18,409 nucleotides of DNA from Candidatus Thorarchaeota archaeon (GCA_016839605.1 JAEOTX010000012.1:1-18409), one strand, 5' to 3'; numbered from the stretch's first letter, positions 3 through 18,143 are shown. Made by a program: numbers and translations. The notes: generated by a model from the letters alone, not told the origin.

Positions 3-3000
3 ACTCAGGTCCTCAAGGGTGAAAGTGAGTCAACAACGTCATCTGAAGAGGAAACAGAAACCGAATCATCCGGTGCATCTGAAGAGATGACCAATGAGAG
101 CGAAGCATCTGAGGAAGCGAATGCCTCTTCCCCTAGTGAACAACAACAACAAGAGGACCACGAGACCTCGCAGCAATCAGAGGAGTCAGTTGCCCAACGA
201 ATGCCAGAAATACAGCAGGGCTACTCCGCAGAAACAGAGCCTGACCGGGGAACCCATACAGAGGGAAGCGAAGTCACTGAGTCAAGACGACGGAGTGTCG
301 AGCAGTCCACACTTGACGAATTCGAGGATGCAGAAGCCTCAGGTGATGCTTCGGAAGACTTGAGAACTGAGTCAACAGACTCTAGTGAAGAGTCGGAGGA
401 GCGCCGTGTCGAACGTGTCGAAGAAATCGAGCGCAATATTGAGGATACAGAAAACCCCGACGCACAAGAAGCCACTGAACCTACCGCAGATACAGATAAA
501 GCTGAGGGATATGCAGACACAAACAGCGAGGTCTCTCATGATAGTCATGATGAAGCGGGAGAGCTTGCAGATTGTGAAGGTTCTGAGGACACGATGCATT
601 CCGCGGAAGGGGGCGAATCTTATGAAACTGGCGAGGAACAGCAGGAATCCGTGTCTGAAATCGAGGCTACACAAGAGCCTGAACACGAGAGTCATTCCCG
701 AGAAGAGGGAGCGACTGAGGCTCAAGAAGCTGAGGAGGTCGTTGTGGATTCAGAGGAGGACCAAACCGAGTCCCTGGAAGACGAGAGTGAGACTGAGGAG
801 TGGCGGATGCCGTCGATGCTTCCAGAGAACTACTCGTTCGACATATTCCCAGAAACGGAGGAGGAGAACTTCAGACCTGCACTCCTGTCTGAAACTATAC
901 AAGGAATCTGGGAGAGCCTCAGCGATGAGGAACGGGAAGAGATCAGACCTTTCCTACGGAAGGGAATCGAGAGCGAGGAAGACCTCGAGGAGGAGCTTGA
1001 GAGATCGCCAAGTGTGAAGTATTCTTCTGACTTTGAGGAGGACCTGGAGGATGCACGTGCCTACCTCCTACTTTCGGCGGAGGATCGTGCCCTCACGGAA
1101 ACTCCCCGACTCTTGGAGCGGCTGATGAATCTTGAGGCTGAGCGCCGCTGGGCTGAATTGCTCTTGACACAGTCTGTTGAGAGCATCATTGATGACTCCG
1201 CATCAATCGAGTCTGAGGCTGAACCGGTGCCGGGGTCTAGAGGAAAGCCGCGCGAGATTCGGTTGCACGAGCCTTCCATCGCAGGTCATGCTGTCCGGGA
1301 TATCAGGACAGTGAGAAGACTACTCAAGAAGCACTACCCAGGCATGCTTGAGCGTTCTGATATCGACAGTCTGTTGAAGCAAGTCGAGGACCATCTGCGA
1401 CTCATTGCGAGACTCTCTGGAAGAACAACAGTGTCCCATAGAGAGCTAGCTATTATCTCAAAGGAACTCGGAATCAAGAAGGGCAACTCGTATGACTGGG
1501 TGTTGAGAGGTCAGGTGCCCAACTTCTACAAGATTCTGGAACAGGCGCTGTCAAAGGAAGCCGCCGCCGCAGTTTTGGATAAGATTCGAGAGTTACTAGG
1601 GTCCATCACAAGCTGGACCGATGTTGAAGCTCGACTTGAGGAGATGTATCCTTGTGGCGAGTACAAGCAGGGATTCAGGTACGATGTCCGCAAACAGAGG
1701 GTCAAGGACTTCTTCAAGTATATCGCTGAATTAGCAAAGAGTGGAACGACGAAGGGCATCGCCCGGCGGGCTGGAATCAAGATTAGGGTTGCTCGGGCTT
1801 TCTCCGATGGGGAAATCCCCTGGCTGATTCGGCATGTGCTACCTGTGGGCTCAATGAGCGAGCTCATGACCAAGGTACAATTCAAGATACCACAAATCCG
1901 CAGGATTGATTTGCGGTCGTTGCAGGAGTTTCATGATATTGTGGATCAACACTTCCCGTGGCTATTGGAGCGGAAGGACTACAAGAGACTCATAAGGCAA
2001 CTCGAGGCCTTCTTTAGACTTGTAAGACGATATCGTGGTGTGGAGTTCTACGCTCCGAGTGACATCTACAAACTGGAGAAGGAGCTTGGTGTTTCTCGAG
2101 AAACTATCAGGGCTTGGCTTATTGGAGAAGCCCTTCCCATGGTCTTTGATATGTTAGACAAGGGGCTCTCAATTGAGGAGGCTGAGGAGAAGTTCAGGGA
2201 GATCACTTCGAGGCTTAACGGAGTTGAGTCATGGTCTGAATTGAGGCGGCGTACGAAGACGTTCTATCCACAAGAGGACACAGAGCAGTTGCCAACCTAT
2301 CAAAAAGATGTGCTTCATGCAAAGGCTTTCTTCAAGTTGTTGACTGCATTAAGGAAGGGTGGCCTGCATACTGATATTGCAGCGAGGGCAGGTCTTAGCG
2401 TCGCCAAAGTCAAAGGGTTGCTCCATGGAGAGGGATTTCCATGGCTTGTTAGGACGGCAACAATGATTCCTGCTGAAAAGCCGAGAAGGGGATACCGGTG
2501 GTTGCCCCTCATAATGGATACCCAAAAGCGAATGAGGGCTTGGATTCAGGTTCCTAAAATGATTAGAGGACTCAATGAAGTCGTTTCTCTGCAGAAGCAA
2601 CTCATGCCCCTAAAAGGAAAATCGATGAAGAATTGGAAGAAACGGTTTGGCGATTTGGAGTTTGTTGAAGCCTTTATGTATCTTCTAGGAGCTTTTACAT
2701 CTGATGGAACAGTTGGTCGAAAGGAAGGAGTATCTACACGACTAGGCATTTCCTTGAGTAAAAAATACCCATGGAGCGAGGCTTTTGGTGAGCTGTTCTG
2801 CTACTGTCTTGGGATTTTGGGGATAAGAGCAAAGAGAGAAAAAGATACAGTGGATGAAAATGGTAATGAAAAGGCAAATTGGAGTAGTAATCATTCATCA
2901 CTTCCAATTTGGATCATAAGGTCTGCTTTGGGACTTAGGAGAGGGCAGGCAAAAGGCAAACAATCTATCAGTGCAGATTGGATTCTCAAGATGTCAAAAG

Positions 3001-3437
3001 GAAACCGAATCTCTTTCGTGCAGGGTCTCGCTGATGGTGATGGTCATGCCTCAGTGAGAGGTCTATCTGCAGGTATTGCGACAAAAACTAACAAGGAATT
3101 CATTCTCAAGCTCCTTGCCTCTTTAGGGATTGAATCAACTTCATATTCTAATGGAATCGTGTTCAACAAGAAGGATTCCCTGCGAAACGCATCACAACTG
3201 CCCTTCTTTCGTGCTGCTGATGGCCGTCAATTCCGTCTAGAGGAAATCATCCGAATGATTGATTCAATGGATTGGGCATCGGTTTCTGCCGACGAACGTG
3301 TTCTCATTATGAATCTACATTCCGAGGGCTGCACAGCTGGTGAGATTAGCAGCATCTTATGGGAGAAGTTAGGAAGAGCAAGGCGTACTCCCACAATAAA
3401 AAAGGCGATTCGCGACCACATTGGCGATTCAGCATAA
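3..3437 (+). CDS. Large multidomain LAGLIDADG endonuclease-family protein (acidic low-complexity N-terminus, 4 HTH-containing repeats, double LAGLIDADG, C-terminal HTH); 5'-partial
   Basis: The frame of ORF 87..3437 is open back to position 3 (TQVLKGESESTTSSEEETETESSGASEE then M), so the true start probably lies upstream of the window. LAGLIDADG-type helices FMYLLGAFTSDG (2673-2708) and SFVQGLADGDG (3012-3044) are about 112 aa apart, both keeping the acidic residue before the last Gly. C-terminal LIMNLHSEGCTAGEISSILWEKLGRARRTPTIKKAI is HTH-like. Confidence 0.8.
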   Translation, partial: TQVLKGESESTTSSEEETETESSGASEEMTNESEASEEANASSPSEQQQQEDHETSQQSEESVAQRMPEIQQGYSAETEPDRGTHTEGSEVTESRRRSVEQSTLDEFEDAEASGDASEDLRTESTDSSEESEERRVERVEEIERNIEDTENPDAQEATEPTADTDKAEGYADTNSEVSHDSHDEAGELADCEGSEDTMHSAEGGESYETGEEQQESVSEIEATQEPEHESHSREEGATEAQEAEEVVVDSEEDQTESLEDESETEEWRMPSMLPENYSFDIFPETEEENFRPALLSETIQGIWESLSDEEREEIRPFLRKGIESEEDLEEELERSPSVKYSSDFEEDLEDARAYLLLSAEDRALTETPRLLERLMNLEAERRWAELLLTQSVESIIDDSASIESEAEPVPGSRGKPREIRLHEPSIAGHAVRDIRTVRRLLKKHYPGMLERSDIDSLLKQVEDHLRLIARLSGRTTVSHRELAIISKELGIKKGNSYDWVLRGQVPNFYKILEQALSKEAAAAVLDKIRELLGSITSWTDVEARLEEMYPCGEYKQGFRYDVRKQRVKDFFKYIAELAKSGTTKGIARRAGIKIRVARAFSDGEIPWLIRHVLPVGSMSELMTKVQFKIPQIRRIDLRSLQEFHDIVDQHFPWLLERKDYKRLIRQLEAFFRLVRRYRGVEFYAPSDIYKLEKELGVSRETIRAWLIGEALPMVFDMLDKGLSIEEAEEKFREITSRLNGVESWSELRRRTKTFYPQEDTEQLPTYQKDVLHAKAFFKLLTALRKGGLHTDIAARAGLSVAKVKGLLHGEGFPWLVRTATMIPAEKPRRGYRWLPLIMDTQKRMRAWIQVPKMIRGLNEVVSLQKQLMPLKGKSMKNWKKRFGDLEFVEAFMYLLGAFTSDGTVGRKEGVSTRLGISLSKKYPWSEAFGELFCYCLGILGIRAKREKDTVDENGNEKANWSSNHSSLPIWIIRSALGLRRGQAKGKQSISADWILKMSKGNRISFVQGLADGDGHASVRGLSAGIATKTNKEFILKLLASLGIESTSYSNGIVFNKKDSLRNASQLPFFRAADGRQFRLEEIIRMIDSMDWASVSADERVLIMNLHSEGCTAGEISSILWEKLGRARRTPTIKKAIRDHIGDSA
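1293..2460 (+). repeat. Internal protein repeats: four ~103-aa modules arranged as a tandem 206-aa (618-nt) unit, A-B-A'-B'
   Basis: Module starts at 1293 (VRDIRTV), 1605 (ITSWTDV), 1911 (LRSLQEF) and 2223 (VESWSEL). HYP/HFP (1332/1950), MYP/FYP (1644/2262) and KELG/KELG (1461/2079) are each exactly 618 nt apart. IARRAGI..GEIPWL aligns with IAARAGL..GEGFPWL. Confidence 0.85.
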
Positions 3438-3456
3438 GATTCAAAACGTGGCAGTA

Positions 3457-3499
3457 TAGTCATGACGAATTATCTCAGAGGCGGGTAGCGTCATGACTA
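3457..3499 (+). promoter_or_regulatory. 11-bp perfect inverted repeat whose right arm contains the carboxyltransferase start codon
   Basis: TAGTCATGACG (3457-3467) and CGTCATGACTA (3489-3499), 21-nt loop; the ATG at 3493 is inside the right arm. Function is inferred. Confidence 0.45.
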
Positions 3500-5040
3500 A
3501 TGAGAAATTTGAGAAGCTCAAAAAAATGCGTGAGAAAGCCAAACTAGCAGGCGGGGAGGAACGCATAGCGAAACAGCATGAACGTGGAAAGTATACCGCG
3601 AGAGAACGCATTGAAAAACTTCTAGATCCAGGTTCATTTGTTGAGATTGATGAATTTGTGATAAGTCGAATTTCGGATTTTGGGATGGATAAGAAACGAA
3701 TTCTAGGTGATGGAGTAATAACCGGTTATGGTGCTATAAATGGTCGAAAAATCTTCATCTTCAGCCAGGATTTCACCGTATTCGGAGGGTCGCTGTCAGA
3801 GAAGTACGGGGATAAGATCTGCAAGGTCATGGATTTAGCTATGCAGGCTGGAGCTCCTGTAATAGGCTTGAACGATTCAGGCGGAGCTCGTATTCAAGAA
3901 GGAATTCTGGCGCTGGCGTCATACTCCCACATTTTCGAACGCAATACCTGGGCCAGCGGTGTCATTCCCCAACTATCCGCAATTTTAGGTCCTTGTGCCG
4001 GCGGAGCAGTCTACAGTCCAGCTGTGACCGATTTCACTCTGATGGTGAAAGGCACATCACACATGTTCATCACTGGCCCTGAAGTCATTAAGACAGTCAC
4101 AGGGGAGGAAGTCACATTTGAGGAACTCGGAGGTGCAATGACACATGCGTCAATCAGTGGAGTGTCACATTTCGCTAGCGAGGATGAAGACCACTGCTTT
4201 GAACAAATAAGGATGCTGCTTAGTTACATTCCGAGTAACAATCTAGAGGACCCGCCAAGAGTGATGAGCGACTGCTCACCTGATGATGTCGATGAATCAA
4301 TCGATGAGGTAGTCCCTGATGACCCTAACAAGCCCTACGACATGAGGGATGTCGTCACAAAGCTTGCGGACAATGGGGATTTCTTTGAAGTTCATGAGCA
4401 TTGGGCTAAGAACATGATTGTGGGTTTTACCCGCTTCAATGGATACTCAGTCGGTATAGTAGGAAACCAGCCTGCTCATCTAGCTGGAACACTCGATATA
4501 GACGCGTCGGACAAGTGTGCCAGGTTTGTCAGATTCTGTGATGCATTCAACATCCCGATTATTACATTCATGGATGTGCCCGGATTCCTTCCAGGAACGG
4601 CACAGGAATGGGGCGGCATAATTAGGCATGGCGCGAAGATTCTGTATGCCTTTGCAGAAGCGACTGTTCCGAAGATTACAATTATCACAAGGAAAGGCTA
4701 TGGTGGAGCCTATGATGTGATGTCATCAAGGCACATTGATGCAGACCTTGTTTATGCTTGGCCTGGATCAGAGATTGCAGTAATGGGGCCCGATGGCGCT
4801 ATCAACATCATATTTCGAAAAGAGATTGAGAAGGCAAAAGACAAAGAGAAGAAACGTGCTGAGTTAGTGAGGGAATATCGGGAAAAATTCGCCAACCCAT
4901 ACGTTGCTGCAGGGCTTGGCTATATCGATAAGGTAATCTTCCCACATGAAACCCGACAGTTGATCTGCAGTGGACTTGACGTTTTGGCGAGTAAACGAAA
5001 AAGCAGACCCCCCAAGAAGCATGGGAATATACCTCTTTAA
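3493..5040 (+). CDS. pccB: Acyl-CoA carboxylase carboxyltransferase subunit (propionyl-CoA carboxylase beta / methylmalonyl-CoA decarboxylase alpha family), full length
   Basis: 515 aa with [84 protein letters not shown] and C-terminal [10 protein letters not shown]. pccB and mmdA cannot be told apart from sequence alone. Confidence 0.95.
3922..5040 (+). repeat. First copy of a 1.12-kb imperfect direct repeat (partner 7423-8541; the last 42 bp recur at 9304-9345)
   Basis: Colinear with 7423-8541 at a constant offset of 3501 nt with no indels. The longest exact match I noticed is 20 bp, GCACAGGAATGGGGCGGCAT (4600-4619 and 8101-8120). Confidence 0.95.
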
Positions 5041-5073
5041 TTCGTTTCAGACATCAATTCTGGAGTTGACCAA

Positions 5074-6078
5074 ATGAATCGCGTGGAGAGATTCATAGAA
5101 TCACTCAGTTCAAACGTGAAGTCCTATAGAATTAAGAGGAAGCTCGAAAGAGCATATGACCCTGACATTGATGCCAATCAGTTGGCCAAATACCTCATTA
5201 TGAGAGTGGAGCAATCAACCAAGGAATCACTTGAGGTTTCTAGCACTAGCTTTGAAAGCACTGGGCGTGCTCTTAGATATCTTCGAAACATGGTTCCAGT
5301 TGCTCTATCTTCCCTAACAGAAAATGAAATGGAACAGGCAATTGTTCAATATGGGCAACCATTGATTCGAGTATACGAATCATTGAATCTATTGGATGAT
5401 GCCCTCCTACTTGCGATGGCTGGTCGTTATACATCATCGTTAACAATTCTGCGTTCTGCTCTTGAATCTATGATTGTTGGTGGTTTCTATCATGGGTTAG
5501 CAAACTCGGATCTAAGAAACAAGGCGTCAGAACTACTTGGCCGTAGACGAAGATGGCCATGGTCTATGCTCGAACTTATTGCCAATCTTACAAACTCCTA
5601 CGAAAATGTAAGTGGTATATCTCTGGAATCAATGATTGAGAATGAGCTAGTAAATCAAGATCCGCCACTGACTCCGCCTACTCTTCGATTTATGTTGGAT
5701 GTTGTGATTCATATGTATGAACCTACAATTCTGCCTAATCCCCTCCAACAGATTCATGAAGAGCTTTACGAAAATCTCTCTGTTTATGCCCATGTTATGA
5801 GCGATGGCATGACCATTGTGCAACATGGCTTGGATGAAGAGCCTGAATTTGATAGTGGAAAAGTATCACTTGACTTAATCCACAAATTCCAAGGTTATTT
5901 CATAGGTACCCTTGACATGGTTGGTGCGCTGTACTATACTTTTACTTCTGACCTGCACGCATCTCCCCGAGTTAGGCAATTAATTATCCAGCAGGACTCA
6001 CAAGTGCATATGCATCGCGAGGGGCTGGACCTTACTTTTGATGCTCTCCGATCTGCAATCGGTCTACGACGAGTTTAA
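5074..6078 (+). CDS. Hypothetical all-alpha protein, HEPN-like (DUF5677-type motifs)
   Basis: 334-aa ORF with GGAG RBS at 5062-5065. Motifs GRYTSSLTILRSALE (R127, E131) and LYENLSVYAH (Y232, S236, H240) match the G-x-Y...LR-x-x-LE and Y-x-x-LS-x-x-x-H pattern I associate with DUF5677/HEPN-fold proteins. The ORF is well supported; the family call is moderate. Confidence 0.55.
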   Translation: MNRVERFIESLSSNVKSYRIKRKLERAYDPDIDANQLAKYLIMRVEQSTKESLEVSSTSFESTGRALRYLRNMVPVALSSLTENEMEQAIVQYGQPLIRVYESLNLLDDALLLAMAGRYTSSLTILRSALESMIVGGFYHGLANSDLRNKASELLGRRRRWPWSMLELIANLTNSYENVSGISLESMIENELVNQDPPLTPPTLRFMLDVVIHMYEPTILPNPLQQIHEELYENLSVYAHVMSDGMTIVQHGLDEEPEFDSGKVSLDLIHKFQGYFIGTLDMVGALYYTFTSDLHASPRVRQLIIQQDSQVHMHREGLDLTFDALRSAIGLRRV

Positions 6079-6088
6079 GCAAACTCGT

Positions 6089-7366
6089 TTAATCATTCGA
6101 AACTGGGGGAGGACATCCTCCTTGAAGCTGGATTTTCTCCCAATCTACTTCCCAAAAAGGGGCTCCTCGAACTAGCAGGGCGCTTTTCGTGGCAATGGCT
6201 CTATTTATTGTCTTGATAGTCTGGATATATCGCTCACCTTCCAGCCTTTCCAAGTCATCTGTGAATCCTACTACTATCATATCTAGGTTCTTCTTAATGT
6301 AGTCAAAGTCGAATTCATCAGATTCGAATCTTCTTCCTCTGCAAAGCCCTCTGACTTTAGACGATTTCCCCTTGAAATCGAATCTAAGTCCCATTTTAAA
6401 AACATCCCAGAAACAGCCTCTCCATTTGCGCACATCACAAAAGATTGTGCCTCTAACTGATGACATTTCGACTCGACACAGGTCTTTCTCATACCTTATT
6501 TCTACTGACTCGCTGATAGCCCAATCAACAGGTCGCTTTTCGGGGAATAGGGTTCCCTCAACGAATCTTGGGATATTACTGGAAACATTCCTCGAGGGGC
6601 GCTTTCGAAAACGGTCAGGAAATGGCATTCCCTTCTTCTGAAGTAAATCTGATGAATATGCTCTGGCGAGAATATCTTCTCGATTGGTAAATGCAATTTC
6701 AGAAAGACGTGAAAGCACATCTTCTGTCAATAAATCCTCTGGGAGCAAGTTGAGCGCTTCAATGGTTCCAAACCTAACCGAATTCGATTTATCTCTTAAC
6801 AGATCCAAAATAGGCAACTTGGCTTTGTTAGCAAGCTTTGCAAGAATAATCCCCAATTTGTATGAAGATTTGGTTTTTCGAATAACATCTAGAAGGACTG
6901 GCAAAAACTCAATTCTTGGCTTCTCTTCAAAAGCTTTAATGAAACCATTAACCAGTCTGTTATTCTTTGTTTTCTTAAGCAGTGACTTGATGTTCTTGAA
7001 TGAATCTTCTCCACTAATCATCATCAGTGCTGATAGCATCTCCTTGGTATGAAAGCAGACCTTCTTCTTGCAAGCTTCAAGCTTCGCAGTCAATCGGGGG
7101 ACCACATAGGGACTATTGAGGATACCAAGGGTGCGAATCAATAATGGATTGGGAGACCTATAATGAACAACGTTTCCTCCTTCTCCCAAAGCAATATCAA
7201 CAAGAAAGCCAAGTTTCGTAGGATATTGAGTAGCCCATTGAATTGCTGATTCAATAATCTCCTCCTGTTTGCGAGCTCTCTGTTCTCCAGTTAATGCATA
7301 CAACTCACGTTTCTTTGAGTCAATTCTCAATAATTTAGATTCTGCATCGTCTAATCCAGGGCTCAT
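6089..7366 (-). CDS. HEAT/PBS-like repeat protein with a possible C-terminal PC4/YdbC-like domain
   Basis: Long ORF; the ATG at 7366 (MSPGLDD) is preferred over the TTG at 7393 because a TATA box sits 28-33 nt upstream of it. HEAT-like segments LIRTLGILNSPYVVPRL and KLPILDLLRDKSNSVRFGTIEALNLL. Confidence 0.6.
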   Translation of the reverse strand: MSPGLDDAESKLLRIDSKKRELYALTGEQRARKQEEIIESAIQWATQYPTKLGFLVDIALGEGGNVVHYRSPNPLLIRTLGILNSPYVVPRLTAKLEACKKKVCFHTKEMLSALMMISGEDSFKNIKSLLKKTKNNRLVNGFIKAFEEKPRIEFLPVLLDVIRKTKSSYKLGIILAKLANKAKLPILDLLRDKSNSVRFGTIEALNLLPEDLLTEDVLSRLSEIAFTNREDILARAYSSDLLQKKGMPFPDRFRKRPSRNVSSNIPRFVEGTLFPEKRPVDWAISESVEIRYEKDLCRVEMSSVRGTIFCDVRKWRGCFWDVFKMGLRFDFKGKSSKVRGLCRGRRFESDEFDFDYIKKNLDMIVVGFTDDLERLEGERYIQTIKTINRAIATKSALLVRGAPFWEVDWEKIQLQGGCPPPVSND

Positions 7367-7392
7367 TCTACTAGCCAGAAGCAAAATTCGCA

Positions 7393-7400
7393 ATTTAAAT
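7393..7400 (-). promoter_or_regulatory. Archaeal TATA box (ATTTAAAT) for the HEAT-repeat gene
   Basis: TTTAAA at 7394-7399, 28-33 nt upstream of the ATG at 7366, typical spacing for a leaderless archaeal transcript. The element is palindromic. Confidence 0.5.
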
Positions 7401-7422
7401 CTGAGCTAACGCGAACCGTTGC

Positions 7423-8541
7423 TACTGCAATATTTTCAGACTGAATACCTGGGCGAGCGGAGTGATTCCGCAGATCTCTGCGATAATGGGTCCCTGCGCA
7501 GGCGGGGCAGTATACAGTCCAGCAGTCACTGATTTCACATTGATGGTCAAAGGCACCTCTCACATGTTTATCACTGGACCCGAAGTTATCAAGACTGTCA
7601 CGGGTGAAGAGGTCACCTTCGAAGAGCTTGGAGGCGCAATGACCCACAATAGCGTGAGTGGTGTTGCCCAGTTCGCCAGTGAGGATGAGGACCACTGCTT
7701 CGAGCAGATACGAAAGCTCCTCAGCTACATGCCTAGCAACAACTTGGAGGACCCTCCCAGAGTGATGAGTGACTGTTCACCTGATGATTTCGATGAGTCG
7801 ATTGACGACATCGTGCCTGAGGATCCTAACAAACCCTACGACATGCGTGATGTTGTTGCTAAAATTGTCGACAATGGAGAGTTCTTAGAGGTTCATGAGC
7901 ATTGGGCGAAGAACATGATGGTGGGCTTTGCTCGGGTGGATGGAAGGTCAATAGGCATTGTTGGCAATCAGCCTGCTCACTTAGCAGGCACTCTAGACAT
8001 CAACGCGTCAGACAAGTGCTCTCGATTCGTCAGGTTCTGTGATGCCTTCAATATCCCGGTGGTCACATTCATGGACGTCCCGGGTTATCTACCCGGAACT
8101 GCACAGGAATGGGGCGGCATCATTCGTCACGGTGCAAAGATTCTCTATGCGTTTGCAGAGGCTACAGTTCCCAAGATCACCATAATCACTCGGAAAGGCT
8201 ACGGCGGCGCCTTCGATGTTATGTCTTCTCGGCACATAGGAGCGGACCTGGTGTATGCCTGGCCTACTGCAGAGATTGCTGTAATGGGTCCTGACGGAGC
8301 AATAAACATCATCTTCCGCAAGGAGATATCTGCGGCAAAGAACAAGGAGAAGAAGCGTGCCGAGTTAGTGAAGGAGTACCGAGAGAGGTTCGCTAATCCC
8401 TATATTGCTGCAGGCTTAGGGTATATCGACAAGGTCATCTTTCCGCACGAAACGAGATCATTGATTTGCAAAGGCCTTGATGTCCTAGCGAGCAAGAGAC
8501 AGAGTAGGCCTCCAAAGAAGCATGGCAATATGCCCCAGTAA
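7423..8541 (+). pseudogene. pccB: 5'-truncated second copy of the carboxyltransferase gene (codons ~144-515)
   Basis: Homology starts at [17 protein letters not shown] (copy 1: [17 protein letters not shown]). An in-frame TGA lies at 7402, and the ORF-track GTG start at 7462 is just internal Val157. Hand alignment gives 43 differences in 359 aa (88% identity), with no stops or frameshifts. The N-terminal region including [10 protein letters not shown] is missing. Confidence 0.9.
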
Positions 8542-8550
8542 TTAGGACGA

Positions 8551-8862
8551 CTAAAGAGGGGGCATCGCAGGAATCTGAATGCGGCCCGCAAACAAGAATG
8601 CAAGCATAAGTATGATGAATGCAAAGATAATAATCATAATCAACGAATTCAGAGAATCCTGAATAGCTTGCACTCTCTCTTCAATCTCATTTGCCCGTTG
8701 GAATTGCCTCATGAAAACACAATGTCCCCCGAGCTCTACACCGTCTTCATCGATTAACCTCACCCACTGCATGCATTCATTCTTCTTACACACGTCTTGC
8801 TGGAAAGGGCAGTCAAACCTCTCCTCTTCAGACAGTATGTTAGGATATTCTTTCGACGACAT
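8551..8862 (-). CDS. Small Cys4-motif protein with short coiled coil and C-terminal transmembrane anchor
   Basis: The ATG at 8862 is preceded by GGAGGT (8870-8875, 7-nt spacing), giving 103 aa. Contains CPFQQDVCKKNECMQW...GGHC, heptad segment IEERVQAIQDSLNSL and hydrophobic IMIIIFAFIILMLAFLFA. Confidence 0.7.
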   Translation of the reverse strand: MSSKEYPNILSEEERFDCPFQQDVCKKNECMQWVRLIDEDGVELGGHCVFMRQFQRANEIEERVQAIQDSLNSLIMIIIFAFIILMLAFLFAGRIQIPAMPPL

Positions 8863-9303
8863 TTCACTTACCTCCATTAAGACTCATCAGTCAGATATCT
8901 TTTACAATACTTCATTTCCCTACATGTTCCTGAAGGCATCATTCTGGCTTAATGCCAGATGGGCTTCTACTGTACAAATCACTCATTGATGGTCTATAGG
9001 CCTCGAATGACAATAGTGAGATGCCAGTATACCTAAAGCTAGAAACCATGAGTCAGAGGATTGGAATCGTCGATTTTGAGATTGGTGCGGCGGCAACCCT
9101 AGTGCTCATTCACGCCCAGGATGCCATGGTCATCTTTCGTAATGCGGTTTCTAGAGGTTCTATTAAAGCTCCCTCAATTCCATTTGGTTTCAGGCTAGAT
9201 AACCTTGAACTGCTATTCCGTATATGCTTTGTGAACCTCAATTATTTCAACGTGAGGGCCGTTCACTGCCAGGTAAGGGGTATATTACCAAGTCAGTAGG
9301 GGA

Positions 9304-9345
9304 CAGAGCAGACCTCCCAAGAAACATGGTAACATGCCGCAGTGA
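9304..9345 (+). pseudogene. pccB: 42-bp third remnant of the carboxyltransferase 3' end, including its stop codon
   Basis: CAG AGC AGA CCT CCC AAG AAA CAT GGT AAC ATG CCG CAG TGA translates to [13 protein letters not shown], identical in protein to the end of copy 2 (8500-8541). 34/42 nt are identical and all 8 differences are silent. Not in the ORF track. Confidence 0.9.
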
Positions 9346-9421
9346 TGAGTTGAATCTCGGGACTCAAAATTGGTGAATTTTAGGCCTATCTATCTACTTC
9401 GAACATTGATGTTTCTTGGGA

Positions 9422-10792
9422 TTAGTTGCTATTGGATAGATTTGTCCATTTGACACCCACTTTTTTCAAGGCATACTCAATTTCACTCAAATAATCACCA
9501 TATACAACTAGCCAGTGAAATCCTTTCATTTCATGTAACAGTTTCTTCCAATCACCCTCGATCTCTATGTCTAATTGAGTGCGGCATATTTGAAGAGTTG
9601 GATTGTCGATTATTCTTCCTCTGAATCCAATCCATTCGTTTCCACTAAACGAAGGATCGATAACAGTAACTACTTGACCTTTCTTCATCTTTACTTGTGG
9701 TGCTGCTCCATAATCAGATTCAAAGTGAGTGAGAATTTCCACTCTTTCAAGGTTTGAGCCATCCATTCTACGCGGTGCTGTGCAATGTGCAACAGTGACT
9801 TGACCTTTATGAGGTAAGGTAGGGTCGACGAAGAAAACAGGTTTGCTTGAAATAAAGTGCAAAAGAATTCCTGCCGGAATAGCGACAAAGTCGGATTCAC
9901 AGAATGCTAGGTATCCAGAATCATTGAGTAAACAGATGGGTAAGCAAGCAGTCGTTTCAGATATTGGCATAACAATTGACATACATCCTGCAATTGTAAG
10001 GATGTGTGCGTTATCTTCTTTCAATAAGTCTTTGAAAACTCGTTCAAGTAGAAATGCATTGATTACGAAATTCTTGTCTGTTTTAAGCTCGACTTTACTA
10101 TTTGACAAATAGTTCTCTGCATCTTCTTGAGCCATTTCAATTGCATCGGTATCTGCCTTCAATACCTCGATTCTATTCGCTAACTCCTGATAGGAAACAG
10201 TTTCTATTTGAAAATCCCATGTTTCATTTGCTTTCTGTACAGCTTCCTCCCCAATACCCCATCCTCCAGGTGCTCCTATCGAAATGACTTTTGCACCAAT
10301 TGCATATTTCAGCCCTACTAGAGCCCTTAATTTCTGGAAGAGTTCTTTGTAATCATCAACTACAATATCCTCAACAATGACAGGTTGCAGGATCTCATCA
10401 GATACACTTTTTCTTAAGAACCGTGGATGGATTATTTCGTACCAGAGATAGTCTTTCCTGAGGAAGAATATTATTGGCATATCATATGACGACAACTGTT
10501 CTAAGGGCTCAATCGAGTCAATTTCCTGCACACCAGCTGCGTATACTAAAATTACATCTGCATTGATGTCTAGATTTCTTATATCTTCAACAGTTTTGGT
10601 CTTGCTTAAAGGCTGAATTCGTAATGGGAACCTAGCCTTATTTTGTAATTCTAGTAATTCATCCTTAATTCTCTTAATCTCGCTGTCTGCATCAGCTTCA
10701 GATTGAATCCCTCCCCAAGGTCTCCAACTAGTTTGCTCCTTCTTCTCGTAAACCCCATATAGAAAGATTGGTTTTACTTGAAAATCGAACAT
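9422..10792 (-). CDS. L-fucose/L-arabinose isomerase-family protein (COG2407-like sugar isomerase)
   Basis: 456 aa with AFCESD (metal-binding E-x-D), VAHCTAP, THFESDYG, CRTQL and GFHWLVVYGDY, characteristic of fucose-isomerase-related proteins. Substrate unknown. Confidence 0.8.
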   Translation of the reverse strand: MFDFQVKPIFLYGVYEKKEQTSWRPWGGIQSEADADSEIKRIKDELLELQNKARFPLRIQPLSKTKTVEDIRNLDINADVILVYAAGVQEIDSIEPLEQLSSYDMPIIFFLRKDYLWYEIIHPRFLRKSVSDEILQPVIVEDIVVDDYKELFQKLRALVGLKYAIGAKVISIGAPGGWGIGEEAVQKANETWDFQIETVSYQELANRIEVLKADTDAIEMAQEDAENYLSNSKVELKTDKNFVINAFLLERVFKDLLKEDNAHILTIAGCMSIVMPISETTACLPICLLNDSGYLAFCESDFVAIPAGILLHFISSKPVFFVDPTLPHKGQVTVAHCTAPRRMDGSNLERVEILTHFESDYGAAPQVKMKKGQVVTVIDPSFSGNEWIGFRGRIIDNPTLQICRTQLDIEIEGDWKKLLHEMKGFHWLVVYGDYLSEIEYALKKVGVKWTNLSNSN

Positions 10793-10819
10793 GAGCAGGT
10801 AAAAAGGTCATGAATACCC

Positions 10820-10825
10820 AATAAA
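10820..10825 (-). promoter_or_regulatory. Probable TATA box (TTTATT) for the isomerase gene
   Basis: 28-33 nt upstream of the ATG at 10792, the same spacing as for the HEAT gene; no RBS, consistent with a leaderless transcript. Confidence 0.4.
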
Positions 10826-10868
10826 TGTGTTCAGACAAGAGAGAACGGAATCACTTCTTGCTCTCTTT

Positions 10869-12944
10869 TCATGACTCTGTCTTAGGTAGCATCATCACCA
10901 TGCTGGTGCCCTGTCGATAATCGCCCTTCACACGGTCTTCGACCCAAATCCTGCCACCATAACGATTCATGATACGTCGGACAAGAGTAAGGCCTAGTCC
11001 GCTTCCGCGCTTCTCTCTGTCCCCAAACCGGGCGAGAATCGCTTTCTTCAAAGTGTCGTTGATTCCTGGGCCCCTGTCCTGCACTCTTATCGAAAGAAAA
11101 CTCTCACTTTCTGATTCATCTGCAGCGACGTCGATGACCACTATGTCATTCTTGTCCATTCTTGCAGAGTTATGAAGTAGGTTATAGAAGACATCAACTA
11201 GAAATTCATCAGCAATTACTGAGTATTGCTCATTGCTGAAATTGGTGTTGATTCTTATACTCATCCCCGGAAACGAATCCTTGACCATGTCAATTGCTTC
11301 TGTGAGTGCAAAATGTGGATCTAAGGGGACCAGCTTGGACTTCTCTCCAAGAGCAGCCAGTTTCTTAACATTGGTCACAAGCTTTGCTCCTCTCTGAGTC
11401 TGCGCCAGAGCTGACTTTGCCAGAGATTCCAGCTCCTCGGATAGGCTTCCACTATCAAGCATAAGCTCCATACTCGACATGATTCCCTGTTGCAGATTGG
11501 AGATGTCATGAGCCATCAGATCATTGTAGAACGCCGCTGTTGCCACAGCCTCCTCTAGTTGGCTCTCTGTCTTTTTCCTCTCAGTGATGTCTCTCGCAAT
11601 ACCAAGGATGCCAACTGGCCTGTCCTTATCATCTCGCAGAAAGACTCGTGAAATTTCAGCCCAAATTCTTGCTCCATCTTTTCGTAGGAATTCCAGCTCA
11701 AGAGGAGGTGCATCATACCCATCCTTTCCAACCTCTTCTTCCAGTGCAAGTGCATCATTCAGAACTGCCCGAGCTACCTCGACTGTTTCCTTTGGCATTA
11801 ATGAGCCTACGTCTACACCCATCAACTCTTCAGGTAAGTAACCTAGCACTTCCAAACTCGCCGGACTGATGTACGTGAAATCGAAATTCAAATCTATGGT
11901 CCAGATAACATCCTTCGCGTTTTCTGCGAGTAATCGAAACCTCTCTTCGCTGGACTGTAGAGCATCCTGAGCCTGATGCCTAGCCAACACAGTAGAAAGC
12001 ATTCCTGCTATAGTTTGAAATAGGGCTTGGTCTCTGTTTCCAAGCCGCTTCTTTTTCCGAGCAGCTATATTCAGGACACCGAGGAGTTCTTCGTTTGCTC
12101 CAATTATTGGCCAGAAAATTATAGCCTGAATTCCCATCTGTTCTAAGAGTGACCTTCGAGAATCAAGAATCGAGCTCTCATGAATGTCTGATTCGAAAAT
12201 GGGCTTCTTCGTTCGAGCAACATGTGCAGCGAGGTACTCTTGATCATCAAGAGGGACCTCACTCCTCGCACCAGCAGGGATGCCAACGACAGCATGCAAT
12301 TTTAGTACTTGATTTCCTTCGTCGTATAGCCTAATGGTTCCAAGGTCGAATCCCAGAATGTCCACCAAGCCGGATATAATCCTGTGACTAGTGGCCTGTG
12401 TGTAGGTTTGCTCTAATGCAGCCTCTGCAATCAGTTGGAATGCCGCTCGCTCCCGTTCAAAGGCTCTTCGCGCCTTGGTGGACTCTGTTATGTCCATCAT
12501 TGATACAAGGACTCTATTCAACGACTCTTTACTCTCATTGGGGACAGAAAGATTGAGCAGAATATGTCTGGTATCCCCTGTGACTGTTTCCAAATCAACA
12601 ATTTGCCTAAACCTAGTTTCACCTTCTGAAAGAGCTATCAGTTCTTCCCGGAAGATATCGTATGCATCTTCCTCTAGGATGTTGCGCAGACTGCCAAGGA
12701 GTAGCTTCTCATCCTCTACGCCCTGCAGCTTCAAGGTTGCCCTGTTTACCCTGACGATCTCAACTAATTCCGCACATTTCAGAACATCATCCAAGTTCTC
12801 TTGAAAGAATTTTCTGAAATCAGTGACCCCTGAAGCCCTCAGGCTATCGAAATATTCCTTCACTTGTGAGAAATCTTCTTCCCATAAAGAAACTGGAGAG
12901 TCCTCAAACAAGGTTAGATAGTGACTCTCAGTTTCGTCCATCAA
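10869..12944 (-). CDS. Cytoplasmic PAS-GAF-PAS sensor histidine kinase
   Basis: PAS (YLTLFEDSPVSLWEEDFS), GAF (PIIGANEELLGVLNIA), PAS/PAC (SEERFRLLAENAKD...GIARDITERK), H box LMAHDISN, N box FYNLLHNS, G1 DRGPGI and G2 GSGLGL. GGAG RBS at 12953-12956; start is TTG 12944 or ATG 12941. Confidence 0.92.
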   Translation of the reverse strand: MMDETESHYLTLFEDSPVSLWEEDFSQVKEYFDSLRASGVTDFRKFFQENLDDVLKCAELVEIVRVNRATLKLQGVEDEKLLLGSLRNILEEDAYDIFREELIALSEGETRFRQIVDLETVTGDTRHILLNLSVPNESKESLNRVLVSMMDITESTKARRAFERERAAFQLIAEAALEQTYTQATSHRIISGLVDILGFDLGTIRLYDEGNQVLKLHAVVGIPAGARSEVPLDDQEYLAAHVARTKKPIFESDIHESSILDSRRSLLEQMGIQAIIFWPIIGANEELLGVLNIAARKKKRLGNRDQALFQTIAGMLSTVLARHQAQDALQSSEERFRLLAENAKDVIWTIDLNFDFTYISPASLEVLGYLPEELMGVDVGSLMPKETVEVARAVLNDALALEEEVGKDGYDAPPLELEFLRKDGARIWAEISRVFLRDDKDRPVGILGIARDITERKKTESQLEEAVATAAFYNDLMAHDISNLQQGIMSSMELMLDSGSLSEELESLAKSALAQTQRGAKLVTNVKKLAALGEKSKLVPLDPHFALTEAIDMVKDSFPGMSIRINTNFSNEQYSVIADEFLVDVFYNLLHNSARMDKNDIVVIDVAADESESESFLSIRVQDRGPGINDTLKKAILARFGDREKRGSGLGLTLVRRIMNRYGGRIWVEDRVKGDYRQGTSMVMMLPKTES

Positions 12945-13127
12945 TCAATCATCTCCAAGTTACTATGCTGCGAGTGTGGTGCTCACAATAAGGTATCTGG
13001 GCGCAATCCAATACTATGTATCCTGTTGTTATATGCATCGCTTGGTGTCCTAGATATTTCATGGGCTCTAATACATCCGGCAACTCTTTTATCCCGTGAC
13101 AGCCACTCAACGGAAGGTGTCACTTCA

Positions 13128-14120
13128 ATGTCTAACGGCAAATCTGTTCTTATCACCGGAGGCACTGGTTTTATAGGAGCGCATTTGGCTCGCAAGCTGA
13201 TACGAGAAGGATATGATGTTGTACTCTTTGACCTCTATCCGAATCCTCATGGAATAGAGGACATCAAGGATCGAGTCAAGATTGTAGAGGGAGATGTTGC
13301 AGACTATAACGCCCTTGCAGAAACCATAGAACGATTCAATGTTGGGTCGGTCATTCATACTGCTGCAATGCTCTCAGTTGCGGCTGCTACCGAACTAAGA
13401 ACAGCCTACAACGTCAATATCGATGGAACATTCAATATTCTTGAAGCCTGCAGAATTGCTGGAATTGACAAGGTAGTGTTCCTTAGCAGTCTTGCAGCAT
13501 TTGGACCGAACTCTCCATTCCCATTTCACGAAGCGACCTACAGAGAGCCTGCCAGCTTCTATGGGGTGAGCAAGGTGTGTGGGGAGGTCTTGGGTACATT
13601 CTATCATCACACACATGGATTAGACTTCAGATGCGTCAGGCTTGCTGTTGTGATTGGACCTGGGAGACGAGGCAAAGGAGCGACAGTTTCATTCTCTAAG
13701 TTCGTTGAAGAAGTAGTCTTGGAAAAGCCGGGTGTCATCCTAGTTCCTGACTACACAATCCTTCCAATTATCCATGTTGATGATGCCACAGATCTACTCT
13801 TGGCATTGTGGAAAGCTGACAGTGTGGACAAACGAATTCACATGTCTGGTGGTGTGTCTGTTGCTATCGAAGACTTCGTCAGTGAGGTCAAGAAGCAGGT
13901 TCCCAAAGCTGATGTGCGATATGAAATGGACTCAACAGTCGAGGAGGTCGCCGGAACATGGACACTGCTCACGACTATGCTAGTGCAACAGGGTCAAGAG
14001 AAAGTCTATCGAGAGATCGAGGAGATTGGATGGAAGCTAATGATAGATGATGTTGAGAAGCTAGCTGCTCATTTTGTAAAGGAAATCAAGGACAACCGCG
14101 AGATGTACTCATCATATTAG
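13128..14120 (+). CDS. NAD-dependent epimerase/dehydratase family extended SDR (resembles SDR-type L-threonine 3-dehydrogenase)
   Basis: TGGTGFIG, HTAAMLS, SSLAAFG, YGVSK and GLDFRCVR. Start moved to ATG 13128 (GGAAGGTG RBS at 13112-13119), giving 330 aa. Confidence 0.88.
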   Translation: MSNGKSVLITGGTGFIGAHLARKLIREGYDVVLFDLYPNPHGIEDIKDRVKIVEGDVADYNALAETIERFNVGSVIHTAAMLSVAAATELRTAYNVNIDGTFNILEACRIAGIDKVVFLSSLAAFGPNSPFPFHEATYREPASFYGVSKVCGEVLGTFYHHTHGLDFRCVRLAVVIGPGRRGKGATVSFSKFVEEVVLEKPGVILVPDYTILPIIHVDDATDLLLALWKADSVDKRIHMSGGVSVAIEDFVSEVKKQVPKADVRYEMDSTVEEVAGTWTLLTTMLVQQGQEKVYREIEEIGWKLMIDDVEKLAAHFVKEIKDNREMYSSY

Positions 14121-14133
14121 GAGGAATATTGGC

Positions 14134-15075
14134 TTGAAGGAAATCAAGAAGACAATGGTAATTGGTGGGGGTGCAATGGGTCATGGCATTGCCCAAGTCT
14201 TTGCACAATCAGGATGTGACGTGGTTCTTGTTGACATCAACGAGGTGGTCTTACTTAATGCGAAGAAGCATGTTGGGGCTAATCTTGAGCTGCTTGCTCA
14301 ACATAACTTGGTAAAGGAGGAGTCAATCGGCGATATCCTTGATAGAATTGTTATTGAACCTGATGTGTCAAAGGCACCATCGGATGTGGATTTCGTTATT
14401 GAAGCTGTTCCAGAAGATGTTGAACTGAAACAGAGGGTGCTGGGCGCTGCTGCAGCCTCTTGTTCCGATGATGCGATTCTTGCCACAACAACATCTGTGA
14501 TTCAGGTTGCCGATATTGCTGAAGGCATGAGCAAGCCTGAACGATTCATTGGAGCGCACTGGATGAACCCACCATACATCCTTCCTTTGGTTGAGATTAT
14601 TCCTGGACCCAAGACCGATGACGCAATTATCACTGCAGTCAGAATGTTTCTGGAGGAGACTTGCGGAAAACGCACAGTTACTTGTGGAGATGCCCCTGGG
14701 TTTCTAGTGAACAGGATGGCAGCCGCAGTATTAGTTGAGGCTGCCAAGATGGTGGAAGAAGGCATCGCCTCATTTGAAGACATTGACAGAGCATGGAAGG
14801 AGCATATGGGCTACATATTCCTGCAGTTTGGACCCTTTGGGAATATTGACCACATTGGTTTGGATGTCATCAATCTTGCAGCTAACTATCTTGCCTTTGT
14901 CTTAGAGGATGAACGTTTCAGACCTCCTGCATGGCTACAGGAGAAGATTGAGGCTGGAGACCTTGGGACTAAGAGCGGCAGGGGCGTTTATGATTATGGA
15001 GGGAGGTCTCCTGAAGACCTTCGCATTGAGAGGACCAAGAAGCTGCTCGAGATTATAAAATCCCGCGAGGGCTAG
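14134..15075 (+). CDS. 3-hydroxyacyl-CoA dehydrogenase family protein
   Basis: GGGAMGHGIA, VIEAVPEDVELK, HWMNPP..LPLVEI (catalytic His/Glu), PGFLVNR, GPF..IDHIGLD and GDLGTKSGRGVYDY. TTG start with GGAGG at 14120-14124; probably co-transcribed with the SDR. Confidence 0.92.
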   Translation: MKEIKKTMVIGGGAMGHGIAQVFAQSGCDVVLVDINEVVLLNAKKHVGANLELLAQHNLVKEESIGDILDRIVIEPDVSKAPSDVDFVIEAVPEDVELKQRVLGAAAASCSDDAILATTTSVIQVADIAEGMSKPERFIGAHWMNPPYILPLVEIIPGPKTDDAIITAVRMFLEETCGKRTVTCGDAPGFLVNRMAAAVLVEAAKMVEEGIASFEDIDRAWKEHMGYIFLQFGPFGNIDHIGLDVINLAANYLAFVLEDERFRPPAWLQEKIEAGDLGTKSGRGVYDYGGRSPEDLRIERTKKLLEIIKSREG

Positions 15076-15077
15076 AG

Positions 15078-16757
15078 TCAGCCTTCGGGAGTAGCTGCCA
15101 GTAACTGGCTGAGGATGCTTTCGTATTCACGGGAAACACGAACATCAACAACTGCAGGTTTGCCTGAATCCAAGGCACGTTGCAGTGCGGGCTTAATGTC
15201 TTCTGTCTTGGTCACGGTTTCTCCGTGCGCACCTAGACTTTCAGCAAACTTGTCGAGATTCACATGCTCATTGATGATTGTTCCACGTCTTGCAAGTTCT
15301 TCCGACCCTGTCTTGATTTTCCTAGTGTGATATACTAGTCCCCATGCTAGGTCATTGCAGACTACAATGACAACAGGAATGTCTTGTCGAACAGCAGTCT
15401 CGAGTTCAACACCATTGAAGAAGAATGTCCCATCTCCGCATACAAGGTAGACATCTTTCTCAGGCTGAGCTGTTTTGGCTGCCAGACTGATCGGAAGGCC
15501 TGCTCCAAGGTGGCCCAATGGGCCTTGCGCTCCAATTATCTGACCTGGGTACTCTGCTCTCAGATAGAGGAAGGCCCATGCAGAGGTGTCTCCTCCATCA
15601 ATCACAAACAAGCTCTCAGGACTCGCAAACTCTCGCAGTTCGCGCATCAGACGATCCGGTCTAATTGGAACCTCCACTGGATCAGCTTCCTCATCAAAGC
15701 CTTCAGCCATCATCTGATAGCCCATTTTGACTTGATTTGAGAAGGCAGTGTCAGTTCTCTTGATTTTCGAAGATTTCGCATAGTCAAGCATTGACTCCAG
15801 TACTGCTTTGGCGTCTCCTGTAATCCCGACCTCAACAGGTCTGTTCTTGCCTATGACTGATGAGTCGATGTCTACATGCACCACTTTCACATCTTCTGCA
15901 AAAGACGCTGGATCCGTTCCAAAGCCGAGGAAGTTGTCGAAACGCGCACCAATTGTGAGCATCACATCTGCCTGTCGTAGGAACGGATTGGTGACAGCGT
16001 TGCCTATTGAGAGATCATGACTCTGCGGAATGCATCCCAGAGCAAGAAACTCGCAGGCCACTGGAGTTGTCATCAATTCCGCGAGCTCAACTAGCTCCTT
16101 AGAAGCTCCAGACCAATAGACTCCGCTTCCAGCTAAGATGATGGGTCGTTCCGCTCCCGCAAGAAGATTGACTGCTTTCTTAATGCAATCAAGATCCCCA
16201 GTTGGTCTTCCTGTTGGACGAAATGAGTCCGGAGCAAATTTCGACTCAGAGCACGAACTTACTTGCACATCTTTGGGAATCTCTAGGACTACAGGACCTT
16301 TCTTTCCAGACATAGCTTCGGTGAAAGCCATTCGAACGTACTTCCCAATTTGCTTGGGATTTCTACACCGAGCCGCCCATTTGGTGAATGGTTCCACCAT
16401 CTTTACGGCATCGATATCTTCGAAGGCATCCATTTCTGTCATGTCCAAAGGGACTGCCGAAGTTATTGCTACCATAGGACTACCAGCTTGGTATGCCTGA
16501 ACCAGAGATGGAAGGAGATTGACGAGCCCCGGCCCCATGGGAACAAGGCAGACGCCCGGAGTGCGTGTGACGCGTCCCCAGCCATCTGCTGCATTCCCAG
16601 CAGCCTGTTCATGCCTTACACTTACGACCTTCACTCCATTATCAATGAGTTCATCTAGAATGGGAAGGATAGAGCCATCTGCCAGTGTGAAGACAGTATT
16701 TACATTCTCTGCTATAATGGCCCTTGCAGCTACTTGAGCTCCTGTCAGCTCTTTCAA
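15078..16757 (-). CDS. Thiamine-diphosphate-dependent enzyme (acetolactate synthase-like / 2-hydroxyacyl-CoA lyase-like)
   Basis: RHEQAAGNAADGWGRVT, GPGLVN, GPVVLEIPKDV and ThDP/Mg motif GDGTFFFNGVELETAVR...NDLAWG. The TTG start overlaps the MFS stop (TTGA, 16754-16757). Confidence 0.9.
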   Translation of the reverse strand: MKELTGAQVAARAIIAENVNTVFTLADGSILPILDELIDNGVKVVSVRHEQAAGNAADGWGRVTRTPGVCLVPMGPGLVNLLPSLVQAYQAGSPMVAITSAVPLDMTEMDAFEDIDAVKMVEPFTKWAARCRNPKQIGKYVRMAFTEAMSGKKGPVVLEIPKDVQVSSCSESKFAPDSFRPTGRPTGDLDCIKKAVNLLAGAERPIILAGSGVYWSGASKELVELAELMTTPVACEFLALGCIPQSHDLSIGNAVTNPFLRQADVMLTIGARFDNFLGFGTDPASFAEDVKVVHVDIDSSVIGKNRPVEVGITGDAKAVLESMLDYAKSSKIKRTDTAFSNQVKMGYQMMAEGFDEEADPVEVPIRPDRLMRELREFASPESLFVIDGGDTSAWAFLYLRAEYPGQIIGAQGPLGHLGAGLPISLAAKTAQPEKDVYLVCGDGTFFFNGVELETAVRQDIPVVIVVCNDLAWGLVYHTRKIKTGSEELARRGTIINEHVNLDKFAESLGAHGETVTKTEDIKPALQRALDSGKPAVVDVRVSREYESILSQLLAATPEG

Positions 16758-18001: not shown

Positions 18002-18143
18002 AATCTCACATCATTCTCTCTTGCCCAATATGGGCTGAACCATCGTAATTCGTTATCCATCATAAAGACCTTTTGGCCAGTATGGAGTGATAGCTATGAT
18101 GTCGGATATTTTGAAATGACTCGGGATTTGACTGGGACTGATT

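Follow-up and report, generated by a model that had tools for sequence, protein, structure and literature searches.

A contig from a Thorarchaeota-type (Asgard) archaeon carries an intact acyl-CoA carboxyltransferase (CT) gene followed by two displaced 3' ends of CT genes, with unrelated genes between them. The contig (GCA_016839605.1 JAEOTX010000012.1:1-18409), all 18.4 kb of which form the window analyzed here, belongs to a metagenome-assembled genome (MAG) of 3.08 Mb that is 80% complete and is called G000 below; other G numbers denote related genomes and L numbers individual contigs. Comparison of the copies with these relatives indicates two rounds of replacement. In round 1 a type II CT allele, together with gene F and a spacer, replaced all but the last ~50 nucleotides (nt) of the original CT. 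In round 2 all sequence up to codon 143 of that type II allele gave way to a block comprising gene A, a complete type I CT, and genes C and D. We propose, with modest confidence, that the locus is a 'tail-stacking' hotspot, at which a foreign CT allele and its neighbors are repeatedly joined into the resident gene and the old 3' part is pushed downstream, the break being made by an A-family nuclease. The array of three CT copies is present as the preliminary description had reported it, and the order of its parts is along the + strand gene A, CT, gene C, gene D (on the - strand), copy 2, gene F (- strand), a spacer, copy 3, gene G (- strand), a GAF-PAS histidine kinase, and further genes:

3..3437, + strand: gene A, giant free-standing LAGLIDADG protein of at least 1116 amino acids (aa) (PF14528 LAGLIDADG_3, E 2.7e-8)
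3493..5040, + strand: copy 1, intact 515-aa CT, mmdA/pccB-like, 'type I' allele (PF01039, E 7e-199)
5074..6078, + strand: gene C, cargo, 334 aa, all-helical, no family match
6089..7393, - strand: gene D, cargo, 434 aa, weak HEAT-repeat similarity (PF13646, E 8e-4, below cutoff)
7423..8541, + strand: copy 2, codons 144-515 of the native 'type II' CT allele, 1119 nt, frame open
8551..8877, - strand: gene F, 108 aa, Cys-rich, with a C-terminal membrane helix; older-round cargo along with the spacer 8878-9291
9292..9345, + strand: copy 3, the last ~45-55 nt of the original resident CT including its TGA stop
9422..10792, - strand: gene G, 456 aa, no family match; ancestral downstream neighbor and right edge of the array

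The three copies share one orientation and each ends at its stop codon; the repeats among them are 42-1119 nt long and 76-80% identical. Copy 1 spans positions 1-493 of the 493 in the PF01039 Carboxyl_trans profile and scores 844 bits against TIGR01117, under that model's 999-bit cutoff; copy 2 spans profile positions 132-493 only. Copy 2 starts, to the base, at the boundary between codons 143 and 144 of its type II allele, and its alignment with codons 144-515 of copy 1 contains no gaps (identity 76-78% in nt and 88% in aa). Its frame evolves under an omega of 0.014 relative to G014, equal to the value between intact orthologs. Copy 3 (9304-9345) encodes 13 residues and a stop, the peptide being identical to the copy 2 tail with eight synonymous differences, and its homology probably starts slightly earlier, at ~9292-9298. 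In a genome-wide tblastn search copy 3 was the best match after the two real copies (E 8e-4), and no further CT copy of this kind was found in the MAG. An exact look-up of the copy 1 protein in public assemblies returned no record.

CT alleles of the genus fall into types that are recognizable around codons 138-150. Type I (ILSLAS-YSF-IFERNTW) is found in G004, G006, G007, G010, G016, and copy 1; type II, which has its own 16-residue pattern there, in G005, G009, G014, G002, and copy 2; and a third type in G011, G015, and G003. By its RpoB domain, G000 groups with G001 (97.8% nt identity) and next with G011, G002, G005, and G015 (85-86%), and is only 77-79% identical to the type I genomes. Copy 2 has 97% aa identity to both G014 (85% nt) and G009, and copy 1 has 75-78% nt identity to every sampled allele, with saturated synonymous divergence (dS). 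Separate trees of codons 1-143 and 144-515 placed copy 1 within type I both times (Shimodaira-Hasegawa approximate likelihood ratio test (SH-aLRT) support of 97 and 89), and copy 2 joined the intact gene of a sister haplotype, described below, inside type II (SH-aLRT 98 and 99). On these comparisons copy 2 is the native allele, and copy 1 is foreign to this lineage over its whole length. As both halves of copy 1 lie in the type I clade, the last event was not a simple replacement of the 3' end, as first described; the whole gene was exchanged. More widely, the CT tree is incongruent with genera: the type I clade spans three genera and includes G087, from another genus, and G048, and the displaced G087 fragments group with the genus to which G087 itself belongs. 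The nearest relative, G001, holds nothing of this contig and, being only 62% complete, says nothing about absence.

The right edge of the array is set by gene G. In G009, G014, and G011 the CT stop is followed by ~77 nt, a convergent gene G, and then the histidine kinase. Copy 3, its TGA, and the next 77 nt align column by column with the CT tail and spacer of G014 and G009 (37/42 nt shared with the G009 tail, same TGA stop). By this colinearity copy 3 is the remnant of the original resident CT, still at its ancestral place by the native neighbor G. Gene G has 90-92% aa identity in the same position in G009 and G014 and 75% in G011, and its DNA also finds matches in G002 and G015. The gene at 9422-10792 had been taken for the cargo of a third round; its place in G009, G014, and G011 makes it an ancestral neighbor instead. 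The claim that the gene was replaced at least twice, the latest cargo lying next to CT, is borne out by the allele clades, the sister haplotype, and the colinearity of copy 3.

The sister haplotype dates round 2. A protein search returned a full-length CT (P0002) with 100% identity to copy 2 throughout its 372 residues. The contigs of the sister haplotype (L080-L082, from three Joint Genome Institute samples) carry an 86-aa remnant of A, followed by a type II CT in intact form and then by the histidine kinase and a GYD gene. Their DNA is 94.1% identical to the window from exactly 7423 to 8543, and the flanks are at 93.5% over the histidine kinase and 94.7% at the contig end. The sister gene and copy 2 differ at 66 positions, 64 of them third codon positions, with no aa change in 372 codons; if the fragment had drifted neutrally for a fraction f of this divergence, as a pseudogene, ~226 x f non-synonymous changes would be expected, so that f is below roughly 1%. 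In three runs the depth of Logan contigs over 7563-9509 is about twice that over 4135-7464 (41.7 versus 22.4, 38.2 versus 18.1, and 10.9 versus 5.8), and loose contig ends at 7423/7426 read ...QEGVKSLVS|Y, which is the uninterrupted type II gene. Given the doubled depth of copy 2, gene F, and copy 3 and these uninterrupted type II ends, a haplotype lacking the newest insertion coexists in the same samples. The zero aa changes and the polymorphism in the reads together show that round 2 is very recent and still polymorphic in the sampled population. The upstream gene A, of which the sister haplotype has only the remnant, arrived with copy 1 in this last event; the HTH (helix-turn-helix) gene upstream in the sister haplotype has no ortholog above 63% identity in this MAG. 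A single ancient split of the gene, kept by selection, was also weighed for G000 and G016 and rejected; in G000, both the polymorphism and the sister allele, which is intact, show that the event was recent.

The sister haplotype also lacks two stretches of the window: 2.3 kb holding gene F, copy 3, and gene G (L080:2282-2307 versus window 8544-10881) and a 5.1-kb block with an epimerase, a 3-hydroxyacyl-CoA dehydrogenase, and two more genes (L080:4477-4519 versus window 13048-18137). Both differences end exactly at conserved genes, and both stretches exist in the window and in more distant relatives (G005, G011, G015, G002).

In a six-frame search of 87 genomes of the order, many turned out to have additional CT 3' fragments downstream of the intact gene and in its orientation; metagenome contigs provided more cases. 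Stacks occur in G003, G016, G063, G066, G078, G086, G087, and G089 and in the metagenome contigs L103-L108 and L115, and short CT tails also in G045, G049, and G068. Arrays mapped in detail are as follows:

G087: A, CT, a four-gene module, a fragment of codons 144-515, then fragments from codons 392, 434, 168, 471, and 472 (six fragments)
G063: fragments from codons 343 and 437
G078: fragments from codons 466, 181, and 489
G089: fragments from codons 482 and 435
G066: fragments from codons 458, 448, and ~140
G086: fragment from codon 324
G003: fragment from codon 483
L103/L104: CT, VapBC, fragment
L105: A, CT, VapBC, fragment, HicAB, tail, four genes, fragment
L115: two codon-144 fragments in one array

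The same accretion is found in many relatives, and both the arrangement and the cargo downstream of CT vary from one to another. The copies had also been said to shorten with distance from the intact gene, which holds in the window; fragment length does not fall with distance in the arrays of the relatives. Cassettes are reshuffled within arrays. Between L105 and L106 the CT genes are 96.4% identical and the flanking GSDH gene only 82%, two extra cassettes adjoin CT in L105, and a tail-HicAB-tail unit that is 96.6% identical between the two contigs occupies different array positions.

One position recurs among the fragment boundaries. The first non-homologous base lies directly before codon 144 in the window, in G016:C110 (flanked by an ATPase and a 208-aa gene), in G087 (flanked by a subtilase), and in L115a, and within one codon of codon 144 in L106/L107 and in a VapC junction shared by L103, L105, and L115b. 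At least six junctions with different left flanks and unrelated cargo, other genera included, therefore fall at this codon or within one codon of it. Fragments of the opposite kind, CT up to exactly codon 143 and then unrelated DNA, are present in G016:C386 and G075:C278, and two contigs of G048 break at codon 143|144. That one bond recurs with unrelated cargo, and that 5' fragments end there too, speaks for breakage at a specific site and against single crossovers at random positions; a double-strand break would leave just such fragments to either side of one bond. The sequences abutting the codon-144 junctions have no common motif or conserved element ends. Among 12-codon windows of CT, an otherwise conserved protein, codons 139-150 rank second in variability (entropy 1.11 against a mean of 0.46), and the allele types differ there. 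Of the earlier statement that 5' breakpoints differ and no fixed site exists, the scatter of the short tails stands, and the recurrence of codon 143|144 in at least six junctions and two 5' fragments does not agree with the rest. An intein or intron site at 143|144 was considered and rejected, the +1 residue being Tyr and neither splicing motifs nor intervening element ends being present. Apparent breaks at codons 167/168 and 198/199 were also set aside, as these are mostly contig ends or gene-caller starts at Met165; the 168 fragment of G087 is internal.

Gene A is the candidate nuclease. The preliminary description found no recombinase in the window, and none was found there or in the related arrays, but a LAGLIDADG gene ends 56 nt before CT, ~485 nt from the 143|144 break. 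Its product has an acidic N-terminal region, four HTH-like modules, a LAGLIDADG domain with two motifs, and a terminal HTH, and its sequence contains no zinc finger and no intein motifs. Both Asp-bearing motifs (...SDG..., ...DGDG...) are invariant in seven CT-linked A orthologs that are 45-72% identical. Orthologs with at least 44% identity invariably lie ~100 nt upstream of CT, in G015, G049, G057, G087, G089, L105, L117, L118/L129, and L119; a partial one lies ~1.5 kb upstream in G016; and C-terminal remnants or ~160-aa forms precede CT in G011, the sister haplotype, G045, G075, G081, and G094. Orthologs or remnants thus stand directly upstream of CT in ~17 loci of several genera. The A gene is present in L105 and cleanly absent from L106, a difference of 1.3 kb, and more distant A paralogs occur at other loci. 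A second A subfamily (540-600 aa, 34-42% identical to A) is found in L121, L123, L126, L128, L130, L131, and L134, in a conserved neighborhood where a 440-aa gene precedes it and small open reading frames (ORFs), a 264-aa gene, and, on the opposite strand, a 908-aa gene follow; the neighbor gene has no visible duplicated fragments at this locus.

We envisage the following course of events. An A-family LAGLIDADG endonuclease, encoded ~485 nt away, would make a site-specific double-strand break at 143|144 of sensitive alleles. The broken end would copy the donor's gene A, its linked cleavage-resistant CT allele, and whatever follows in the donor, and the copied DNA would then join the other break end (codons 144-515) or pair with a donor fragment. 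Once arrays exist, homologous recombination between the repeated tails may shuffle the cassettes.

Several observations weigh against a nuclease-driven hotspot. Gene A is missing upstream of some codon-144 arrays (L103, L106/L107) and present at loci without a codon-144 fragment (G049, G057, G089, L118, L119), and the association between the two (~3/6 versus ~2/35 assessable loci) is weak and confounded by relatedness. A could be a domesticated DNA-binding protein, as other subfamilies look resident without tail stacks, and the variability of codons 139-150 may reflect no more than a loop on the protein surface. A single cut site also fails to account for the short tails, whose starts are scattered over codons 434-501. 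On its left side the newest insertion runs past the start of the contig, so that its boundary there was not found, and all read support, in the form of Logan contigs, comes from four marine-sediment runs of one study, probably the MAG's own source.

The main alternative, which we consider less likely, is the same tail stacking without a dedicated nuclease. Foreign DNA taken up by the cell would be integrated by host homologous recombination anchored in CT or upstream of it, the other end being joined by homology-facilitated illegitimate recombination or paired with an existing fragment; circles looped out between tails would re-insert by single crossover, and the codon-144 junction would be an old boundary spread by descent and recombination. 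Cassettes that carry neither recombinase nor nuclease, the scattered starts of the short tails, codon-144 arrays with no A upstream, tail-bounded cassettes at different array positions in L105 and L106, and window/sister differences bounded exactly by conserved genes all agree with it. It has to account, however, for six sequences and two 5' fragments at one bond, each junction needing its own founding event, for which the chance is roughly (7/1545)^5. Moreover, native sequence in copy 2 begins no more than 12-17 nt from the junction, which fits a break end better than a crossover located anywhere in 1.1 kb.

We regard as improbable a site-specific recombinase that acts in trans, integron-like, or on transient elements and inserts cassettes within CT. 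The exact recurrence of one junction and the likeness to cassette arrays would suit such an enzyme, but no integrase or transposase was found among ~25 cassette genes scanned nor in or beside the ~15 arrays examined, and the junctions have no conserved repeat or element end. Duplications of up to 1.1 kb and whole-gene replacement are likewise not typical of att recombination.

An assembly or binning chimera of two strains' genes is a natural concern here, the window being a MAG contig and several alleles occurring together in the community, and we consider it very improbable. Every junction is bridged, by 31 nt or more on either side, in independent Logan contigs of four runs. They span 3820/4135/4150-7464 in three runs and 5512-7464 in the fourth (gene end, cargo, and the 7423 junction), and 7563-9509 or 7563-10200 in three runs (copy 2, gene F, copy 3, and the next gene); the same architecture also recurs in many other assemblies, long contigs included. 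Some low-depth joints lead from copy 1 to copy 2 positions (3785>7479 and others); as their sides measure just 20-23 nt and their offsets are non-homologous, they were taken as conserved words of other organisms. Local tandem duplication of CT with decay of the downstream copies, to which their shared orientation and closeness might point, is scarcely credible, as copies 1 and 2 belong to different allele clades with saturated synonymous divergence and are not old tandem paralogs, copy 2 is 94% nt identical to the single intact gene of a sister haplotype without copy 1, copy 2 has undergone no relaxed selection, and relatives differ in arrangement.

The nearest parallel to the proposed nuclease-driven hotspot is provided by the WHO elements at the aldolase gene FBA1 of Torulaspora and Lachancea yeasts, where FBA1 fragments start at the cleavage site (Coughlan et al. 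2020, PMC7282813; Osborne et al. 2026, bioRxiv 10.64898/2026.08.13.744650), and where the target site is likewise variable among alleles (bioRxiv 10.64898/2026.08.13.744650). In both systems 3' fragments of an essential gene are stacked behind it in its own orientation, many of them starting at one position, and the newest unit adjoins the gene. Each round brings in a divergent gene sequence, so that phylogenies are discordant, a LAGLIDADG-type nuclease is linked to the locus, and the target protein is hypervariable around the presumed cut site. The differences are also clear. Each WHO unit has one nuclease gene, placed after the full-length gene and before the fragment, whereas A lies upstream of CT only and the CT cassettes carry passenger genes (toxin-antitoxin, defense, surface) and no nuclease genes. 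WHO elements replace the 3' part, whereas the whole gene was replaced in the window, in an archaeon without meiosis. Finally, the WHO/HO nuclease is intein-derived with a zinc finger, whereas gene A combines LAGLIDADG with HTH repeats and has neither a zinc finger nor intein motifs.

Free-standing homing endonucleases of T4-like phages (seg, mob; 'intronless homing') cut a nearby conserved gene a few hundred bases away. As proposed here, the nuclease gene sits beside its target and spreads with a flanking resistant allele by repair; the phage outcome differs in being a clean allele replacement, with no stacked remnants or cargo cassettes. The elements e14 and phage 21 integrate at E. coli icd by a tyrosine integrase acting at a short fixed att site, with ~165 bp duplicated. 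They too bring in a new 3' end and displace the old one downstream, but the CT locus has no integrase and no short identical att repeats, its duplications reach 1.1 kb, and replacement extends to the entire gene. Integrons resemble the CT arrays in being growing, reshuffled arrays of small promoter-poor cassettes at one anchored site, newest first; they differ in that IntI, attI, and attC are absent here and the repeats are pieces of a coding gene.

We speculate further, and more tentatively than for the hotspot itself, that Thorarchaeia carry an archaeal counterpart of WHO. Gene A, upstream of an essential gene, would cut rival alleles at 143|144, drive whole-gene replacement across species, and seed an integrase-free cassette array of defense, toxin-antitoxin, and surface genes, a nuclease-seeded functional analog of the integron that may exist at several Asgard housekeeping genes. 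We found no description of such CT tail stacking in archaea in the literature; Wu et al. 2022 (PMC8813620) describe a homing-endonuclease-like gene in an element beside the Heimdallarchaeum 16S rRNA gene, with no tail stacks. New at the CT locus are the 1.1-kb fragment, the whole-gene replacement, and the position of the candidate nuclease gene upstream of CT, as well as an exact recurrent break with both halves preserved and a population holding both states. If the proposal is true, repair of targeted breaks lets Asgard archaea acquire accessory genes such as defense systems, toxin-antitoxin pairs, and surface proteins behind essential genes and reshuffle them there, without integrases or transposases, and a homing principle so far known only in yeasts and fungal mitochondria reaches the archaeal lineage closest to eukaryotes. 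It would also account for a core metabolic gene phylogeny that cuts across genera and would make hotspots of pangenome variation in uncultured archaea predictable. The CT locus offers a concrete 20-30-bp candidate target site and a candidate nuclease, with both alleles coexisting in a natural population.

The cargo genes of the window were compared with Pfam, NCBIfam, PADLOC, and PDB sequences, and gene C also with its Atlas neighbors. None of genes C, D, F, and G had a match in PADLOC, NCBIfam, or the PDB sequences. Gene C also had none in Pfam; its homologs, in 8/87 genomes, have at most 33% identity except for one 61-residue fragment at 43%, and its Atlas neighbors are unnamed or DUF5677. 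Gene D has no homolog adjoining CT in the locus of any relative. Gene F has no family matches and is absent at this position from G014, G009, G011, and the sister haplotype. Gene G had no match in any of the four collections, Pfam included, though it is conserved beside CT in several species. The earlier labels 'HEPN-like' (5074-6078) and 'sugar isomerase' (9422-10792) therefore find no support in these collections, and the HEAT label (6089-7393) retains only the sub-threshold PF13646 match listed above.

The cassettes of the relatives carry VapBC, HicAB, AbiEi/AbiEii, an NsnB/AriA-like ATPase, catalase, beta-helix, TPR, and HEAT proteins, and histidine kinases, as well as a recurring module of a surface protein, a membrane wHTH (winged helix-turn-helix) protein, and a subtilase. 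In full, the module also includes a nucleotidyltransferase; its surface protein is membrane-anchored and 365-392 aa long, and its wHTH protein, of 150-190 aa, has membrane helices. It is present in the CT cassettes of four genomes (L056 (G016:C386) 388-4758; L062 (G087:C4) oriented 9028-13306; L035; L060). On L037 (G016:C110), positions 503-2399 of the - strand encode an ABC-type ATPase that matches PADLOC NsnB (E 2e-54) and AriA, together with a 208-aa partner without a known family; the two are a probable defense pair.

Database 'carboxyltransferases' of 349-379 aa (P0049, P0054, P0065, P0079, P0084, P0090, P0092, P0094, P0096) are gene-caller readings of displaced 3' fragments; several start at the internal Met165, and one sequence occurs on 14 contigs. 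If the nuclease-driven hotspot is real, such truncated entries of ~350-380 aa are relics and not enzymes. Within the window, at 12921-12944, the start of the epimerase ORF (GTG 12921) overlaps that of the histidine kinase ORF on the opposite strand (TTG 12944), and the true starts of both probably lie further inside.

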